A stretch of DNA of 32,000 nt from Candidatus Saccharimonadota bacterium (GTDB lineage Bacteria > Patescibacteriota > Saccharimonadia > Saccharimonadales > Saccharimonadaceae): positions 930,001 through 962,000 of the forward strand of contig JAIUPJ010000001.1 of NCBI GenBank assembly GCA_020160975.1, read 5' to 3'. Numbering within the stretch: position 1 is the first letter of the stretch; each line of letters starts with the position of its first letter. This document shows positions 8,763 to 21,191 of this stretch, piece after piece. The translations under genes and the position numbers were made by a program. Under the pieces are notes generated by a model. The model saw only the letters and a list, made by a program, of their open reading frames with translations. It searched no databases and was not told the DNA's origin.

Positions 8763-9728
8763 ATGATACTTGGGATTGACGAAGCGGGTCGTGGCCCATG
8801 GGCGGGGCCTTTGGTAGTGGGTGCGGTTGTGCTTGGCGGTGCTCGTATTGAGGGACTGAATGACAGCAAGAAGCTGACGAAGAAGCGTCGTGAGGAATTG
8901 TATAACCAAATCAAACAGCAGGCTACTTCGGCGGCTGGTTGGGTGAGCGCGCAGGAACTCGACGATATGGGCATGAGTGCCGCGCTGCGGCTGGCGACGC
9001 GGCGAGCGGTAGAAAAGATCGCTGTACCCTACCACGAGATCATCATCGACGGTACAATTAATTTCTTGGCAGATACAAGCAAGGGCGGCTACGTGACGAC
9101 GCTTCCAAAAGCAGATTCATTGATACCGAGCGTGTCGGCGGCGTCCATCGTGGCGAAGGTTGAGCGTGATCGGTATATGGCGGAGCTTGACGAGCGTCAT
9201 CCCGGCTATGGGTTTGCTAAGCATGCAGGCTATGGAGTGGCCGCGCATCGTGCAGCGATCGAAAGGCTCGGGGTGACGCCGGAACACCGGCTGAGTTTTG
9301 CACCGCTGCAGAAATATGCTTCGCGAGACTCGTCTCATTTGGGTGCAGCGGCTTCTGCTGGCGGTCGGCCTGAGGCAACCCCGACCACTCGTAGCATCGG
9401 TGATAGGAGCGAAACGGTCGCCGCCAACTATCTTGTGCGCTATGGTCACGAAATCATCGCTCGCAACTGGCGGACCAAATACTGCGAGATCGATATTATT
9501 TCCCGAAAAAACGACACACTCTACTTTACCGAAGTCAAGCATCGAAAGAACGGGAAAGCTGGTGATGGGATGGCGGCAATCACCACAAAAAAGCAAAACC
9601 AAATGGCATTTGCTGCAAAATTTTATGTGCATACGCAACTACGCGACTCGCCAGTGAATTTGCGCCTCTCCGCGATAGCGACCACAGGTGAGCAGCCAGA
9701 GGTGACCGACTATATTGTTATTGAGTAA
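8763..9728 (+). CDS. rnhB: Fusion protein: RNase HII (aa 1-~186) + YraN/UPF0102 PD-(D/E)XK nuclease-like domain (aa ~212-321)
   Basis: RNase HII: GIDEAGRGPWAGPLVVGAV, NDSKKL, SAASIVAKVERD. A Ser/Ala/Gly/Pro-rich linker follows. YraN: GDRSETVAANYLVRYGHEIIARNWRTKYCEIDIISRKNDTLYFTEVKHRK. It is one uninterrupted frame. Confidence 0.9.
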   Translation: MILGIDEAGRGPWAGPLVVGAVVLGGARIEGLNDSKKLTKKRREELYNQIKQQATSAAGWVSAQELDDMGMSAALRLATRRAVEKIAVPYHEIIIDGTINFLADTSKGGYVTTLPKADSLIPSVSAASIVAKVERDRYMAELDERHPGYGFAKHAGYGVAAHRAAIERLGVTPEHRLSFAPLQKYASRDSSHLGAAASAGGRPEATPTTRSIGDRSETVAANYLVRYGHEIIARNWRTKYCEIDIISRKNDTLYFTEVKHRKNGKAGDGMAAITTKKQNQMAFAAKFYVHTQLRDSPVNLRLSAIATTGEQPEVTDYIVIE

Positions 9729-12892: not shown

Positions 12893-13627
12893 ATGAAACA
12901 ACGTCGCCGGCGAGTTCTGGGAGTGATATTGATTGCGATTGCAATCGCGCTGATGACGGTGAATTCTGGCCAGTCTCAGTTTGGCGCGCCAACAACGTCT
13001 ACGCGGCCGTCTGGTCCAAACATTACCGATGCGAGCCTGCCGAAAGAGAATCCCCCGCAACCAACACCGCTCGCGATCGTCGTGCTGGATACCATCGCCA
13101 TCAAGGGGCGTGCGCCCAAGACTGATTATCGACGGGTGCAATTTGGTGACGGATGGATACTGGTTGGAAACTGCGACACGCGCAACATCATTCTCAACCG
13201 CGATCTAACCGATGTAACGCTGACGGGCTGCAAGGTGGCGACAGGCAAGCTGACCGACCCGTACACAGGTAAGCTGATTGATTTTCAGCGCGGGCCCGAG
13301 GGGAGCACGTTGATACAGATTGATCATGTGGTGGCGCTGAGCAACGCTTGGCAAACCGGTGCGCAGTTGCTGACGCTTCAGCAGCGGATTGCCTTTGCTA
13401 ATGACCCACTCGAATTGCTGGCGGTTGATGGCAACGCCAATCAAGCAAAGGGCGATGGTGACGCCGCGACCTGGCTACCGGCAAACAAAGCCTTTCGCTG
13501 CCAATACGTCGCACGTCAAATTGCGGTGAAAGCTAAGTATAGTTTGTGGGTGACACAGGCCGAGAAAGAGGCTATGCAGCGGGTGCTCAGGGAATGTCCG
13601 GAGCAGACGGTACCGGGAGTGAGGTAG
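12893..13627 (+). CDS. Membrane-anchored/secreted DUF1524 (HNH-like) nuclease (245 aa from ATG 12893)
   Basis: N-terminus MKQRRRRVLGVILIAIAIALMTV (signal anchor), then a Pro/Thr-rich linker. Core IDHVVALSNAWQTG...AVDGNANQAKGDGDAATWLP matches the His-Me finger/DUF1524 pattern. The ORF-track start at 12809 (TTG) would overlap pepN and is unlikely. Confidence 0.8.
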   Translation: MKQRRRRVLGVILIAIAIALMTVNSGQSQFGAPTTSTRPSGPNITDASLPKENPPQPTPLAIVVLDTIAIKGRAPKTDYRRVQFGDGWILVGNCDTRNIILNRDLTDVTLTGCKVATGKLTDPYTGKLIDFQRGPEGSTLIQIDHVVALSNAWQTGAQLLTLQQRIAFANDPLELLAVDGNANQAKGDGDAATWLPANKAFRCQYVARQIAVKAKYSLWVTQAEKEAMQRVLRECPEQTVPGVR

Positions 13628-13775
13628 GGTTGGTCTTAGAGCTTAGAGCATAGCTAAACTGCAAAAATAACCCTTGGTTCTAAGTCTTAAGTCGTAAAAA
13701 ATTGTTTTTCGTCATTCCGGACTTGATCCAAAATTTAAAGATTCTGGTGTGCTTCTTCTCTAGAAAATCAAATCC

Positions 13776-14334
13776 TTTCTTTTGTCTCATCAAAAGAAAC
13801 AAAACCGACCACCTTTGGAGTCAAAGGTGGAGAAACCTCTGGGGCGGCTTCCCTCCGCCGGGAACAGCAACTACGACTTTCTTGGAAGACTGCGGAGTCT
13901 TTGTTCAGTGAGCAGGAACAAAGACGAAGTCCTCGTCTTGCCAGGAAAGCCGTAGTCACCGTGTCTCGGGTCAGTCCAGATGCCCCAGACCCCAGGACGC
14001 AGCAGAGCTGCTTATTTCAGCGGCTCTGCCGCAAAATACTGCAGTCACTCGTGACTGTACACCTAATGGGTCTTGGGAGCTCAAGAACCCAAGAAGACTG
14101 AGGATTGTCTTTTGGAGTCATTCACGACATTGTTTCCACTACAAACAATAGCGATACTGTAGTGGAATGCCCTTTAGGGCAGTATGTCGTGACCAAAAGA
14201 CAAGCAGAAGGCTTCTTGGCGTGAATGAGATATCCCAATGTCGTGTTTGGTTCTTTGATCGAAACAAAGAACTGTTTCCCTCGCTTTGCAGCAAAGCGAG
14301 TCGCTTTTTGCTTCTTTGGCGAAAGAAAAAGAAG
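13776..14334 (+). ncRNA. Candidate large structured RNA (class unknown; strand tentatively +)
   Basis: A dense series of perfect 6-10 bp hairpins plus nested long-range helices. No protein-like ORF. See findings for the coordinates of each helix. Confidence 0.35.
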
Positions 14335-14415
14335 TGGATTTATTCGGTTCTTTTGGATAAAGAGCTAGACTTACCCGTTTTGCAAAAAGGAGACGGCATA
14401 TAAATTTTTAATCCC

Positions 14416-14484
14416 AAAATGTCAAAACCCCACCCTCACCACACTGGCGGAGCGGGGCTCGACGCCGAGTGGGTGAGGGTGGGG
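14416..14484 (-). terminator. Very strong intrinsic terminator for a minus-strand transcript
   Basis: Extended hairpin 14428-14484. Thirteen contiguous bp (CCCCACCCTCACC 14428-14440 with GGTGAGGGTGGGG 14472-14484) plus three inner 4-bp segments. On the minus strand it is followed by TTTTGACATTTT (14427..14416). Confidence 0.7.
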
Positions 14485-14488
14485 TGAA

Positions 14489-14776
14489 TCAGAGGGCTGC
14501 TTGATACGCGCTGTCGGACGTCTTGATGAACCAAGGCCTCCAAAGCGGTAGTAGCGGTAGTTTCCTCAAGACAAGTGTCACTGGGTAGTGGCGGCTGTCA
14601 GCTGAGCTTGTCCCTACAGATCCCCACATGTGTCTTTGTCTGCGCTTGTAGATGAAGTGCACAGCAGGGCTCTTCGAGGTTCCTTTTGTGCGTTCATGCC
14701 GCTGCACTTGAGTGATCGTGCAGTTGGAGGCGACGACGACGACTTCCATTGTGCGAGTGATCACAGCATCTCCCAT
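14489..14776 (-). CDS. Doubtful 95-aa very basic ORF, or the body of a ~390-nt non-coding RNA, inside the minus-strand unit
   Basis: It is bracketed by a consensus promoter and the terminator. However, it lacks an SD, its composition is Arg/His/Trp/Cys-rich and unlike the neighbouring proteins, and I recognise no motif. Confidence 0.3.
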   Translation of the reverse strand: MGDAVITRTMEVVVVASNCTITQVQRHERTKGTSKSPAVHFIYKRRQRHMWGSVGTSSADSRHYPVTLVLRKLPLLPLWRPWFIKTSDSAYQAAL

Positions 14777-14811
14777 GATTGAGTGTCCAAAAACCAAAAA
14801 CTTCCATTTTA

Positions 14812-14840
14812 ATTATGACAAAACTAACTATATTTGTCAA
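14812..14840 (-). promoter_or_regulatory. Near-consensus sigma70-type promoter firing leftwards
   Basis: Minus strand reads TTGACA (14840..14835), a 17-nt spacer, then CATAAT (14817..14812). Predicted start is near 14805. Confidence 0.6.
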
Positions 14841-14860
14841 GTTTTGCGATGTTGTAACAG

Positions 14861-17842
<2,982 letters not shown>

Positions 17843-17959: not shown

Positions 17960-19078
17960 ATGGAAGACTTAAACATTAAACAACTCACCCTCGCAGTGCG
18001 TACTATCGCAGAGGAAAAGAACCTGCCCGAAGAGACAGTGATGGAAGTCATCGAGCAGGCAATTGCGGCTGCATGGCGCCGTGACAATGGTGAGCGCGAG
18101 CAGGAAGTGCGCGCCGAGCTAAACGTCAATGACGGTACCGCTAAGGTATATGTACAGCGTGAAGTGGTCGAAGATCCGATCAACGACGCGACCGAAATCA
18201 GCCTGGCAGACGCCAAAAAGGTCAAAAAAGACGCCAAACTCGAAGATATCATCGAGGAAGAGCACACCGTGACGAGCTTCGGCCGTGTAGCGGCACAAAC
18301 AGCCAAGCAAGTGGTGCTCCAGCGCCTACGCGAAGCTGAGCGCGAAGTAGTGCTGGTGGAGTTTGAAGACAAAATCGGCACCGTGGTCAACGGTATGGTG
18401 CAGCGCGTCGAGCCACGCGTGGTGCGTGTCGAGATCAACAAAGCGGTCGGTATATTGCCGCAGAGTGAGCAGATTCAGGGTGAATTCTACTCTGTTGGAC
18501 AGCGTATCAAGGTCTTTATCAAGGATATCGAGCGCGACAACCGTGGCCCACAGCTCATCCTCAGCCGTGGTAACGAAGCCTTCGTCGAGTATCTCTTCCG
18601 CCAAGAAGTGCCAGAGATGGAGACAGGCGCGGTCGAGATTAAGGGTATCGCCCGCGAAGCTGGTCGTCGTACTAAATTGGCCGTAGCAAGCACAGTACCT
18701 GGTGTTGATCCAGTAGGTACCTTCGTTGGTGGACATGGCACGCGTGTCAATGCTGTTATGAATGAAATCGGAGACCAGGAGAAAATCGATATCGTTACTT
18801 TTGATGACAATGTCGATACCTACATCCGCAATGCGCTTTCACCGGCTGAAGTGGTGAAAGTAGAGATTGACGAAGAGGCCAAGCGTGCTAAGGTATTTGT
18901 GAGTGAAGACCAGCAATCAATTGCTATTGGTCGTGGTGGCCAAAATGTCCGCCTGGCAAGCAAACTGACCGGCTACGAACTTGATATTGAGACTGCAGTC
19001 GCTAAGCCAGCTGAAAAGAAGCCAAAAAAGAATATCGAAGAAGGCCTCTTCGCAGCTATTGAAGAGCAAGGCGAGTAG
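17960..19078 (+). CDS. nusA: Transcription termination/antitermination factor NusA (372 aa, no AR1/AR2 repeats)
   Basis: N-terminal domain, S1 domain (VVNGMVQRVEPRVVRVEI) and KH domains (IGRGGQNVRLASKLTGYELDI). SD AAAGGAG lies 7 nt upstream. Confidence 0.95.
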   Translation: MEDLNIKQLTLAVRTIAEEKNLPEETVMEVIEQAIAAAWRRDNGEREQEVRAELNVNDGTAKVYVQREVVEDPINDATEISLADAKKVKKDAKLEDIIEEEHTVTSFGRVAAQTAKQVVLQRLREAEREVVLVEFEDKIGTVVNGMVQRVEPRVVRVEINKAVGILPQSEQIQGEFYSVGQRIKVFIKDIERDNRGPQLILSRGNEAFVEYLFRQEVPEMETGAVEIKGIAREAGRRTKLAVASTVPGVDPVGTFVGGHGTRVNAVMNEIGDQEKIDIVTFDDNVDTYIRNALSPAEVVKVEIDEEAKRAKVFVSEDQQSIAIGRGGQNVRLASKLTGYELDIETAVAKPAEKKPKKNIEEGLFAAIEEQGE

Positions 19079-19097
19079 TCACTCTTCTGCAAAAAAG

Positions 19098-19122
19098 AAA
19101 GCCTCCAGATGGGGGCCTTTTT
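19098..19122 (+). terminator. nusA intrinsic terminator
   Basis: GCCTCC 19101-19106 pairs with GGGGGC 19111-19116 (one G-T), AGAT loop, flanking A/T pairs, then a T-run at 19118-19122. Confidence 0.7.
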
Positions 19123-19134
19123 GCTGATATTGAA

Positions 19135-19195
19135 GAGGGCACCCTCTCCAGAGATTTCTCTCCGGAGGGGTGCCCTCGTGTCGCCAGTGGCGACG
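19135..19195 (-). terminator. GC-rich hairpins in the 3' region of the flotillin-like gene
   Basis: Long hairpin 19135-19177 (GAGGGCACCC...GGGTGCCCTC arms with inner AGAGA/TCTCT pairing). Second hairpin 19179-19195 (GTCGCC AGT GGCGAC). No clear U-run follows on the minus strand, so terminator function is uncertain. Confidence 0.35.
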
Positions 19196-19202
19196 AGTTG
19201 AG

Positions 19203-21191
19203 TCAGGCCTCGTTGCTCGCTTCCGCAGAGCTCGGGGTCGACTCGGTGGTGCCTTGCGGCTTGCTGGTCGTGGCCTGAGCCACGAGCAGCTGCAGCAGCT
19301 CGAGCAGGTTGCCACCACCACCGCCGCCCGTGATGAGGGTCTGCGGCATGTACGGCGTCTGGCTCTTGCTCAGTGCATCGACGACGGCCACGGCAGCGGT
19401 CTGACCCGCACCGATGGCGTCACGCTGCGCCTGGTATCCAGCCGCCTGGCCCTCACCGAGGGCTCGGGCGGCGGAGCCGTTGGCTTCACCGATGGCACGG
19501 ATCTTGGCAGCCTCACCGGCACCGAGCTCCTCCAGGACCTTGCGGTCACCGGTCGCCTTGGCCACGGCAGCTTCGGCGTTCGCCCTGTTGATCTCGACCG
19601 AGACCTGGGCGGCGGCCTTCTGCTGCTGCATGTCAGCCTGACCCTTCATCGCCTCCATGTCGATGCGCGCGTTCTCGGCGTCCTTCTGGGCGCCGTACGT
19701 CTGCTTCTTCTGGTTGGCGATTTCTCGGGTTCTGAGAACCTCGGCGAGGTCATCGGGAAGTCTGACGTCCTGGATGTAGACGCCGCGCACCTCGACGAAG
19801 TACTCGTTGAGGTACTCCTTGATGTACTCGGTGGCCTTCTGCTGAACGCTGCTGCGGGTCTGGATGAAGTCCGTTGCCGCAAGCTTGGAGAGCGTGTCGC
19901 GGAAGTAGTTGCCAACCGCGGCCTGAAGGACCTCGTTCACCAACTTGGCGATCGACTCCACCGACCCGATCACCTTGGCGGCGTTCGTGTCGGGGATGTG
20001 GATCTGGACTTGCAGTTCGATCGCGAACTCGAACGCGTCGTTCGACTTCGCAACGATGGTGCTGAGCTCCCTGTCGAGGCCGTGCTCGGACTCGACGTTG
20101 TCGGCCCAGTTGAGCTGCAGGATGCTGGTGGGGACGATGATCGGCTGGTAGATGGTCTGGTTGAGACCCTTCTTGCTGGTGCGGATCACATCCGACCAGA
20201 TGCCTTCGTGACCGGGTGCCACGATGGATCCGAACTTGTACGTCTCACCGGACTTGTCCTCAGTCGGCAGGCCGACGTACGCCTTGATGACCGCGACCTG
20301 GCCCTGCTCGACCACCAGCATGGGCTGGAGGTCGACCTTGAACAGGAAGGGGTTGATGGCGTAGTCACCCGAACGCAGCACGTCATGCTGAAGGCCTCGG
20401 CGGCCTCCCGCATCCAGGAACGCCTGGGCGTCCTGGTAGTTGTTGTGCAGTGCGTTGTGGTCGCCGAGCACCGTCTGGATGACCTCATTCGAGGAAGCGT
20501 TGGACGCCTCCAACGAGCGGATGTCATCGAAGCTACCGATGCGGCCGGCAATCGTTCCCGGCTCGAGCGGCGGACCGTCGAGCGCGGTGAGGATGCCAAC
20601 CTGGTCGGTGGGGATGGTGACGTAGTGCAGGTCCTTGCTCTGTGCGAGCTGAACCATCTGCTCGGCGTCACGGTTGACGGGTCGCCCATAGGTACCGTTG
20701 ACCGTCACCACGATGAAGGCATCGGGGTGGATGGTGTAGGTACCCGGGGTGAGCACGTGACGCTGGACGCCCTGCTGGCCACCGTTGTCGACGAAGGACT
20801 TGACGTCCTGAAAGTTGCCGTACTCGGGCTTGTAGGCCGCGCTCGTCGCTCCCGTCGGAATCGGTGCTCCCACCTGGGAGATGACGATGCCGAAGGTCTT
20901 GTCCGGGATGCTGATGATCGGCACCTTGCGGTTGCTGAACATCGGCCACAGACGAAGGTGAGGGCCGGTCGCGAGGGCACCTGGCTGGATGCCGTTCTCG
21001 CCGTTGAGCGCGATGAAGCCGTTGTTTTCGAGCGACTTCCCGCCGAAGTTCTTCGTGAGAAAGGCGTTGTAGCCCTCACGTACGAACATGAAGCTCTTCG
21101 CGAAGACGAACAGGACGATGAGAACGACCAGTCCGATCACGATGAGCATCGGTGAGATGCTGATACCAAAGGGCACGAGAGTTCCTTTCAC
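19203..21191 (-). CDS. SPFH/band-7 (flotillin-like) membrane protein, ~660 aa, in a high-GC block
   Basis: N-terminal TM (MLIVIGLVVLIVLFVFA). SPFH-like core, then a C-terminal Ala/Glu/Gln-rich coiled coil with flotillin-type repeats (AEAAVAKATG..., EAAKIRAIGEANGSAARALGEGQAAGYQAQ). The start is GTG at 21191, or GTG at 21176, which has AAAGGA 6 nt upstream. Confidence 0.8.
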   Translation of the reverse strand: MKGTLVPFGISISPMLIVIGLVVLIVLFVFAKSFMFVREGYNAFLTKNFGGKSLENNGFIALNGENGIQPGALATGPHLRLWPMFSNRKVPIISIPDKTFGIVISQVGAPIPTGATSAAYKPEYGNFQDVKSFVDNGGQQGVQRHVLTPGTYTIHPDAFIVVTVNGTYGRPVNRDAEQMVQLAQSKDLHYVTIPTDQVGILTALDGPPLEPGTIAGRIGSFDDIRSLEASNASSNEVIQTVLGDHNALHNNYQDAQAFLDAGGRRGLQHDVLRSGDYAINPFLFKVDLQPMLVVEQGQVAVIKAYVGLPTEDKSGETYKFGSIVAPGHEGIWSDVIRTSKKGLNQTIYQPIIVPTSILQLNWADNVESEHGLDRELSTIVAKSNDAFEFAIELQVQIHIPDTNAAKVIGSVESIAKLVNEVLQAAVGNYFRDTLSKLAATDFIQTRSSVQQKATEYIKEYLNEYFVEVRGVYIQDVRLPDDLAEVLRTREIANQKKQTYGAQKDAENARIDMEAMKGQADMQQQKAAAQVSVEINRANAEAAVAKATGDRKVLEELGAGEAAKIRAIGEANGSAARALGEGQAAGYQAQRDAIGAGQTAAVAVVDALSKSQTPYMPQTLITGGGGGGNLLELLQLLVAQATTSKPQGTTESTPSSAEASNEA

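Follow-up and report, generated by a model that had tools for sequence, protein, structure and literature searches.

What kind of element occupies the non-coding gap between a nuclease gene and the yhhQ/Vut_1 gene in a Saccharibacteria chromosome, and does it act as RNA or as DNA? The stretch analysed here, referred to as the window, is 32,000 nt of a Candidatus Saccharibacteria chromosome (contig JAIUPJ010000001.1, positions 930,001 to 962,000), in which the neighbouring genes are housekeeping genes. Saccharibacteria belong to the Candidate Phyla Radiation (CPR), a group of bacteria with tiny genomes that are densely packed with genes, and whose non-coding RNAs and mobile DNA are almost unexplored. 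The nuclease gene ends at 13627 and the 1.23-kb gap up to Vut_1 holds a folded domain, here called J, which lies within a non-coding, hairpin-dense module of 579 bp (13766–14344). The analysis establishes the fold and its conservation, the boundaries of the module, its restriction to one lineage and the mosaic recombination of the locus. Our verdict is a new structured single-strand element, with a slight preference for a structured RNA carried on a foldback module. It is a new structured element from a poorly explored phylum, and its mix of RNA-like covariation and mobile-DNA-like organisation is unusual.

The junction and domain J

The sequence-only reading had drawn a nested three-way junction of 95 nt on the + strand (14107–14201), and reading the sequence directly confirms its four helices, which contain 33 Watson–Crick pairs and no mismatch. 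The inner 9 bp of helix P2 (GTCTTTTGG, 14107–14115, with CCAAAAGAC, 14193–14201) are followed by the one-sided bulge AGTCAT and by helix P3 (TCACGACAT, 14122–14130, with ATGTCGTGA, 14184–14192). Within these lie two hairpins, hp1 (TTCCACTACA, 14134–14143, with TGTAGTGGAA, 14158–14167) and hp2 (TGCCC-TTTA-GGGCA, 14168–14181). Both the minimum free energy (MFE) and the centroid RNA structures of the 95 nt are exactly this junction. Its folding energy is -40.5 kcal/mol, compared with -18.7 ± 3.3 kcal/mol in dinucleotide shuffles (z = -6.7, none of 200 as good), so that the comparison proposed along with the junction came out in its favour. The opposite strand of the same 95 nt reaches -42.4 kcal/mol (z = -7.4), and the wider stretch 13628–14500 gives z = -8.4 on the + strand and -12.1 on the - strand. 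In a GC-regressed sliding MFE scan, no strongly structured stretch of the 32-kb window is longer than that at about 13750–14550. A genome-wide richness in hairpins was rejected as an explanation, the only other strong spot (19000–19500) being an ordinary pair of convergent terminators.

The 95-nt junction forms just the core of a larger domain, which in turn belongs to the module. P2 at its full length has 11 bp (14105–14115 with 14193–14203) and is enclosed by P1 (CCAAGAAG, 14089–14096, with CTTCTTGG, 14212–14219); outside P1 are P0b (CTCA with TGAG) and the outermost helix, P0a (TGGGA, 14074–14078, with TCCCA, 14233–14237). Domain J therefore runs on the + strand as a five-helix domain of 166 nt (14073–14238), built from P0a, P0b, P1, an internal loop, P2, the 6-nt bulge, P3, hp1 and hp2. 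With DNA parameters it folds at -43.9 kcal/mol (z = -9.9).

Loci of relatives, designated here by L numbers, provided five sequences of J in four natural versions: that of the window, that shared by L021 and L022, that of L034 and that of L041. These versions are related by recombination, and the figures below rest on these five sequences only. It had been foreseen that relatives might conserve the sequence and break the pairings. They do not: folded independently, the four versions share the architecture of J, including the 6-nt one-sided bulge. RNAalifold returned the same architecture, with double compensatory changes in 20 of 58 pairs. In the J alignment 92.8% of cells were paired, compared with 82.6 ± 1.2% in 500 shuffles (none of the 500 as high) and 35–40% when the partners were slid by 1–3 columns. 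Pairs changed on both sides numbered 20, compared with 11 ± 2.2 in the 500 shuffles (again none as high) and 3–6 in the slid controls. The pairs of J survive in L041 although 13983–14485 is only 73% identical to the window there.

The changes are often large. P2 reads TTGTCTTTTGG/CCAAAAGACAA in the window, AAGACTGG/CCAGTCTT in L021 and L022, AAGGCTGG/CCAGTCTT in L041 and GTACCAATCCAG/CTGGATTGGTAC in L034, and hp1 occurs as TTCCACTACA/TGTAGTGGAA, TCCCGCCAC/GTGGCGGGA, CCTGCTGT/ACAGCGGG and CCCGTTGT/ACAGCGGG; both helices thus show wholesale replacement of sequence between versions with perfect pairing retained. P3 (TCACGAC/GTCGTGA or TCATGAC/GTCATGA) and hp2 (TGCCC/GGGCA or TGACCC/GGGTCA) each have two versions. 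A covariance model built from J, a search which the sequence-only reading had also proposed, matched this locus and its counterparts in L021, L022, L026, L034 and L041, and no other place.

The claim that the region is selected for structure rather than for coding stands in so far as the shuffles, the kept pairings and the non-coding character of the sequence support it; it falls short of a strict proof of selection, since template switching could mimic the pattern. Likewise, a folded single strand, which had been proposed as RNA (or ssDNA), is upheld, but the fold does not settle the choice between the two.

Some further features of J were noted. The sequence ATGTCGTG occurs twice (14184–14191 and 14238–14245), so that the 5' arm of P3 gains an alternative partner of 10 bp (14123–14132 with 14236–14245); this could be a switch, or simply a duplication. 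The 6-nt bulge can pair with 14220–14228 as a pseudoknot or alternative pairing, for which there is one compensatory change in L021; the pairing is not kept in L041 and is a lead only.

The inverted-repeat module and its relatives

At each end of the module stands a terminal inverted repeat of about 55 nt, itself built of hairpins: 13766–13818 matches the reverse complement of about 14292–14344 over about 56 nt at roughly 75%. Each end follows the plan AAT(C)AAATCC, hairpin h1, spacer CAAAA(C/G)CGAC, hairpin h2. The left repeat (13766–13830 on the + strand) consists of AATCAAATCC (13766–13775), h1 (13776–13799), the spacer CAAAACCGA (13800–13808) and h2 (13809–13830). The right repeat (14280–14344 on the + strand) consists of h2R (14280–14300) followed by TCGCTTTTTG, h1R (14311–14334) and GGATTTATT (14336–14344). 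Both inner hairpins carry a T-run in the outward direction only. Read on the - strand (13830–13809), h2 is followed by TCGGTTTTGT, while h2R with TCGCTTTTTG faces outward on the + strand; each is a terminator-like site. In L041, h2R has a different stem (CTTCCTTTA / TAAAGGAAG) and the T-run is kept. A stem-loop with a T-run, as in rho-independent terminators, is predicted at h2, at h2R and at a hairpin beyond the module (14427–14485). The AAATCC-plus-hairpin motif has exactly two occurrences, in opposite orientations and confined to the module, and three of the four matches in the window to the CTTTG...CAAAG core common to the stems are inside it.

Between the left repeat and J lie two more domains. 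A1 (13838–13989, assigned to neither strand) is a long branched hairpin closed by TCTGGGGCG / TGCCCCAGA, with the internal-loop motif CTGCGGA / AGTCCTC. Its fold is kept between the window and L041 at 79% identity, with double changes in 5 of 35 pairs and the apical hairpin replaced, and the internal-loop motif is unchanged. At the position of A1, L034 and L041 have a different, A2-type domain, with an identical apical motif above covarying helices. B1 (13991–14077, + strand) is a small three-way junction in which CCCAGGAC / GTCTTGGG closes around hairpins at 14002–14029 and 14040–14059. Its closing helix shares 14074–14077 with P0a, so that the two are mutually exclusive, and its support is weaker than that of J because the changes between variants are partly wobble and partly disruptive. 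To the right of J, the hairpin GTTCTTTG-ATCGAAA-CAAAGAAC (14250–14272, + strand) is conserved in all versions.

Two recurrent sequences link the domains. A1 and J (at 13885–13905 and 14093–14113) both contain GAAGACTG(C/A)GGA..GTCTTT, and the pentamer pair GTCTT/AAGAC recurs in many stems throughout 13630–14640. To judge from the sequence, these hint at an internal duplication of domains or at a common recognition motif.

A coding explanation for the module was rejected: its open reading frames (ORFs) are short and none has homologues, the indels between versions are not multiples of three, and the neighbouring 95-aa ORF is an orphan. The window contains no tandem or direct repeat array of the kind found in CRISPR or type III antitoxin loci, no dispersed repeats, and no tRNA or tmRNA. 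An origin or terminus of replication was also rejected, the cumulative GC skew being monotonic.

Eight other species share the gene order M1 peptidase, nuclease, Vut_1, with a gap of 7–742 nt between nuclease and Vut_1. Nothing homologous to 13650–14415 is present in the gaps of those eight, an absence confirmed by the covariance model of J. A scan of genome collections through the Vut_1 protein covered eight related Saccharibacteria species and the distant taxa L009 and L011, and found the module in none. Altogether it is absent from at least nine related lineages with the same synteny. In L003, L004, L007 and L010 the syntenic gap is only 7–65 nt; given such short gaps in CPR relatives, the retention of some 600 nt of non-coding DNA is unusual. 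A single metagenome scan with an invariant 26-mer yielded one contig, L034, while L041 was reached through a Vut_1 homologue at 83% identity and a 99% variant of the orphan ORF pointed to short contigs from other samples. Strain-level contigs with identical flanking proteins showed no difference from the window (100% identity) and so gave no information. Several of the source contigs come from wastewater or sewage metagenomes (sets from which the organism was assembled include JGI 3300003768, ERZ27233586, SRR14932494 and the MUNK22 sewage sets), and the module is restricted to one clade of wastewater Saccharibacteria.

Within this clade the locus is a mosaic, as seen in L021, L045 and L035. 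L021 and L022 match the window at about 99% to either side of an island (about 14007–14225) within which roughly 40% of positions differ, and the adjacent Vut_1 coding sequence of L021 is about 11% different. L034 is identical to the window to the right of about 14222 and carries the third version of J; its left half is strongly diverged but collinear, and its left-hand gene is a different one. In L045 a window-like nuclease gene is combined with an L041-type 3' end.

In addition, the non-coding right flank is 98.9–100% identical, along with the orphan ORF and the initial ~140 nt of Vut_1 (14225–15050), in L021, L035–L040 and L034, lineages in which the remaining Vut_1 sequence differs by 11–13%. 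This pattern suggests a tract that recombination has exchanged in recent times. Breaks at 13971, 14250 or 14305 are common among the metagenome contigs, as would fit differences between strains in the junction island.

RNA, mobile DNA or by-product of recombination

The conserved unpaired motifs, and a specific five-helix geometry that persists over 27% divergence, argue for a functional folded single strand, for which RNA and ssDNA are indistinguishable by this evidence. The reading we prefer, tentatively and as something short of probable, is a structured non-coding RNA encoded on a foldback module resembling a miniature inverted-repeat transposable element (MITE); it would be transcribed by read-through and ended at the far-end hairpin, with its helices as a scaffold and its loop motifs as contacts. 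The product would be about 540–580 nt long. Transcription would enter from a flanking gene, in the window as + strand read-through from the nuclease gene, would pass A1, B1 and J and would stop at the far-end hairpin and U-run (14280–14310). The mirror hairpin at the left end would likewise stop transcripts of the - strand. In such an RNA the helices of J would serve as a geometric scaffold where pairing alone matters, leaving the sequence of P2, P3, hp1 and hp2 free to change, and a partner would make contact at the small number of unpaired motifs that are conserved (such as CTGCGGA / AGTCCTC in domain A).

Several observations bear on the strand. A manual helix table lists five non-Watson–Crick pairs in J, all of which are G.U in the + sense and none in the - sense. 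The right part of the module and J fold better on the + strand. A + strand transcript ending near 14310 is favoured because of this G.U polarity, the better folding of the right part and the retention of the T-run in 14280–14310. There is no terminator between the nuclease gene and the module in the window.

A narrower proposal, that the module encodes a large (~0.55 kb) structured non-coding RNA of a new class, confined to a CPR/Saccharibacteria clade and carried on a self-contained mobile cassette bounded by inverted repeats, seems to us unlikely. In such an RNA, P2, hp1 and similar helices would be rewritten at will, with the geometry of the three-way junction and some loop motifs preserved. 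If true, it would mean a scaffold or decoy RNA with a protein partner, possibly tied to the small-ORF cargo of the locus or to an HUH transposase.

A number of observations weigh against a transcript as the functional form. No promoter-like site was found inside the module on either strand, and the nuclease gene of L041 is followed, ahead of the module, by a strong terminator. A1 folds better on the - strand in both its versions, so the strand signals of the domains disagree. A strand-specific ssDNA substrate would be expected to show the same G.T polarity, and the module's 'terminators' are simply the two copies of an inverted repeat. Conservation is poor in the junction strands and loops of J, unlike in ligand-binding RNAs. 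Only four versions of J were available, and these are related by recombination. Finally, the helices are almost purely Watson–Crick, and whole helices are swapped between flanks that are otherwise about 99% identical. Template switching can create and maintain perfect hairpins and can produce apparent compensatory changes in a single event (PMC8794818), and wholesale swapped, G.U-poor helices are the signature expected of template switching or arm-to-arm conversion (PMC8794818).

These last points lead directly to a neutral explanation, which we regard as improbable: that the module is functionless junk in a recombination hotspot, its palindromes generated and kept perfect by template switching or arm-to-arm conversion in replication or repair and shuffled between lineages by natural transformation. 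The mismatch-free, G.U-poor helices and the mosaic locus fit this explanation, as do the natural competence of Saccharibacteria (PMC10187176) and the unrelated cargo found in the slot between nuclease and Vut_1 in different lineages. It accounts less well for an architecture, bulge size and helix order kept over the divergence between the window and L041 and over three unrelated P2 sequences, or for unpaired motifs conserved beside changing helices. Moreover, streamlined CPR genomes of ~1 Mb rarely retain 0.6 kb of useless DNA, and conservation is far higher in the right flank of the module than in the protein gene beside it.

A stronger rival comes from the relatives in which the locus has been rearranged. 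In L041, A1 with h2 and h1 is inverted and moved beyond the small-ORF cassette to a place next to Vut_1, and the A2 domain replaces it on the left. In L051 the same slot holds, at 380–1140, a gene for a Y1/HUH transposase of 205 aa that resembles the tyrosine transposases associated with repetitive extragenic palindromic (REP) sequences (RAYTs), with the HUH motif 'HFH' and 'YIHLNP'. It scores 28 bits against Pfam Y1_Tnp, above the cut-off of 23, and 44 bits against NCBIfam REP_Tyr_transpos, below the cut-off of 80. Inverted copies of a perfect hairpin with an 18-bp stem (CACCCTTTGCTATCGGGT-CGT-ACCCGATAGCAAAGGGTG) flank this gene, and the outer stem and flank of the hairpin (AACAAAACC...CACCCTTTG...CAAAGGGTG) resemble h2 of the window (AACAAAACCGACCACCTTTG...CAAAGGTGG), although the similarity is short. 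To our knowledge, elements of the REP/RAYT type are undescribed in Saccharibacteria.

The module might thus be a mobile foldback element at the DNA level, non-autonomous and of the REP/BIME-cluster (BIME, bacterial interspersed mosaic element) or IS200/RAYT-dependent type, with no RNA function needed; we consider this doubtful, yet a serious contender. Its hairpins would be ssDNA substrates or landing sites of an HUH Y1 transposase, and its nested stems would have arisen from palindromes inserted into loops. The L051 gene between inverted hairpins with an h2-like outer stem supports this possibility, together with the inverted-repeat hairpin ends, the inversion and relocation of A1 with h2 and h1 in L041, the different left neighbour in L034 and the presence or absence of the module by lineage. 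So do the folding of J with DNA parameters, which is as strong as with RNA, and the nearly complete Watson–Crick character of the helices. On the other side, no remnant of the L051 transposase was found by tblastn in the window or in any module-bearing locus, and the similarity of the L051 hairpin could reflect a shared ancestral flank. The window and about 200 kb of loci contain no second copy of the module. Beside the repeat ends the flanks, read directly, show no target-site duplication, a weak negative as the exact ends are uncertain. Conserved internal-loop motifs and covarying helices also exceed what recognition of ends by a transposase would need of an interior of about 450 nt.

Particular types of mobile element were considered as well. 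A non-autonomous derivative of IS200/IS605 does not fit, since such elements have subterminal hairpins in one orientation and no terminal inverted repeats, whereas the ends of the module are true inverted repeats, with the asymmetric AAATCC flank also inverted. Dispersed, near-identical palindromes of 20–40 nt, as in REP/BIME sequences, were not found in the window and loci, where the stems have only the CTTTG/CAAAG core in common; the RAYT-like gene that would go with them is present in the L051 slot, beside different hairpins. The terminal inverted repeats that characterise MITEs are present.

The structured RNA on a foldback module remains our slight preference. Because its elaborate fold is kept through dozens of compensatory changes, it recombines between lineages and its slot is shared with a hairpin-dependent, Y1/RAYT-like transposase, the module is either a new structured RNA class or a new foldback mobile element. 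The narrow distribution and the small sample limit the claim. The locus is also a natural test case of how much covariation support comes from template switching or arm-to-arm conversion and how much from selection on RNA.

Gene context and comparison with known systems

The genes of the window include an RNase HII–YraN fusion, an M1 aminopeptidase, the GmrSD_C/HNH nuclease, yhhQ/Vut_1, tgt, queA and nusA. To one side of the module is the nuclease gene and to the other a small orphan ORF, itself upstream of yhhQ/Vut_1. This ORF (14776 to 14489 on the - strand, 95 aa) is the cargo of a variable slot; it has no Pfam match and its database relatives are 99–100% copies only. It has a strong promoter, TTGACA-17-CATAAT (14840 to 14812 on the - strand), and a predicted intrinsic terminator (14427–14485, - strand) with a 14-bp outer stem, ACCCCACCCTCACC / GGTGAGGGTGGGGT, followed by TTTTGACATTTTG. 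The inner part of this terminator is conserved in L001, L041 and L051, and the terminator is outside the module and ancestral to the locus.

Vut_1 has a promoter-like site of its own, TTGCGA-17-TATACT (14844–14872, + strand), with the equivalent TTGCAC-17-TATACT in L041. Its true start is probably the ATG at 14882 rather than that at 14861, because its relatives have 224 aa. With the promoter-like site ending at 14872, the mRNA would then be nearly leaderless.

This arrangement bears on a further alternative, in which the module is a cis-regulatory leader of Vut_1/YhhQ (a riboswitch-like aptamer with a terminator) or an origin or priming site resembling the single-strand origin ssoA; it is largely refuted and we hold it to be very improbable. 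The yhhQ genes are often regulated by preQ1 riboswitches. The module is upstream of Vut_1 on the same strand, a + strand terminator-like hairpin follows J, and through the ATGTCGTG repeat a second, downstream partner is available to the 5' arm of P3. A leader of the preQ1 type was nevertheless rejected: Vut_1 has its promoter at the gene itself, and the convergent ORF with its terminator separates J from Vut_1. The module is missing from relatives that share the gene order, no Rfam riboswitch appears even at E <= 10, and the junction nucleotides are not conserved.

As for an ssoA, the window, L021 and L022 carry in the hp1 loop a TAGCGA that resembles its CS-6 box (PMC4598088). This hexamer is absent from the loops of L034 and L041, however, and TAGCG(T/A) occurs in the window at chance frequency (27 observed, 29 ± 5 expected). 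The RSB box (consensus from PMC4598088, for example TTATGCCGAGAAAATTT) has no match in the window with up to three mismatches. A rolling-circle replicon does not fit the chromosomal housekeeping context, which has no Rep gene and no plasmid or phage match. A hammerhead ribozyme, which has the core CUGANGA ... GAAA at a three-helix junction with a cleavage-site triplet, was rejected too: CTGAGGA is found only in the P1/P2 internal loop of the window version, which is two-way, it is absent from L021, L034 and L041, and there is no Rfam match.

The slot between nuclease and Vut_1 (14489–14840 on the - strand in the window, 2771–3160 in L041, and the gaps of L008, L002 and L051) holds non-homologous small - strand ORFs in different lineages: 95 aa in the window, 100 aa in L041, 134 aa in L008 and 61 aa in L051. 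All are behind a similar strong promoter. A similar 5'-UTR hairpin (GCGG..CCGC-GAACC) occurs in the slots of L002, L008, L041 and L051, and the same terminator hairpin lies 3' of the slot ORF in the window, L041 and L051. The slot looks like a hotspot of cargo exchange.

Two other places in the window deserve mention. The region 19170–21191 is GC-rich (62%, compared with about 51%) and has a long ORF of 661 aa on the + strand and another of 662 aa on the - strand. The + strand was chosen by one gene caller, with a product of 633 aa and no Pfam match, while at this position the related contig L019 encodes a Band_7 protein of 657 aa on the opposite strand; the region may hold a strain-variable or acquired gene. 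At 8763–9728 a single ORF of 321 aa fuses RNase HII to a UPF0102 (YraN-like nuclease) domain.

Searches for known families gave no assignment. At the gathering score, Rfam 15, whose families include riboswitches such as preQ1, ribozymes, group I/II introns and 6S, has no match in the whole window, L041, L034 or L021, and at E <= 10 the region 13300–15000 gives only sub-threshold miRNA and snoRNA noise. The module has no match among 50,697 phage and 72,556 plasmid records in BLAST distant mode, and exact anchors have none in IMG/VR viral contigs. No record of the element was found in the literature or in databases, and it belongs to no described family.

Among known systems, the module is like the large non-coding RNAs OLE, GOLLD, ROOL, raiA and HEARO in being several hundred nucleotides long, multi-branched, supported by covariation, intergenic and restricted to a lineage; like GOLLD, ROOL and HEARO it is in addition associated with mobile DNA. 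It differs from RNAs of the OLE/GOLLD type in that its helices are unusually perfect and G.U-poor, with few conserved unpaired positions and no promoter identified. It also differs from them in having no match in Rfam 15 and in having been seen in one narrow clade only and as a single copy.

With MITEs the module shares a size of about 580 bp, a non-coding sequence, inverted repeats of ~55 nt, the potential to fold back, a variable presence and the rearrangement of its parts. In contrast to MITEs, no target-site duplication, second copy in the DNA examined or identifiable parent transposase was found. In its interior a specific multi-helix fold is preserved through compensatory changes, something for which MITEs have no known need.

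The module is like REP/BIME sequences in being a cluster of short perfect palindromes, extragenic, between convergent units and terminator-like, with a RAYT-like gene in the corresponding slot of L051. Its hairpins, however, differ from one another and from the L051 hairpin, and they are nested in a three-way junction rather than arrayed. There are no such repeats elsewhere in the window or loci, and no RAYT was seen in the module-bearing contigs. Finally, it is like the hairpins produced and maintained by template switching (Monttinen & Loytynoja 2022, PMC8794818) in its perfect stems, its clustered multi-base 'compensatory' differences and the replacement of whole arms between near-identical flanks. 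Template switching (PMC8794818) explains the origin of such helices, but not the persistence of the five-helix architecture, the bulge and the internal-loop motifs across diverged versions.

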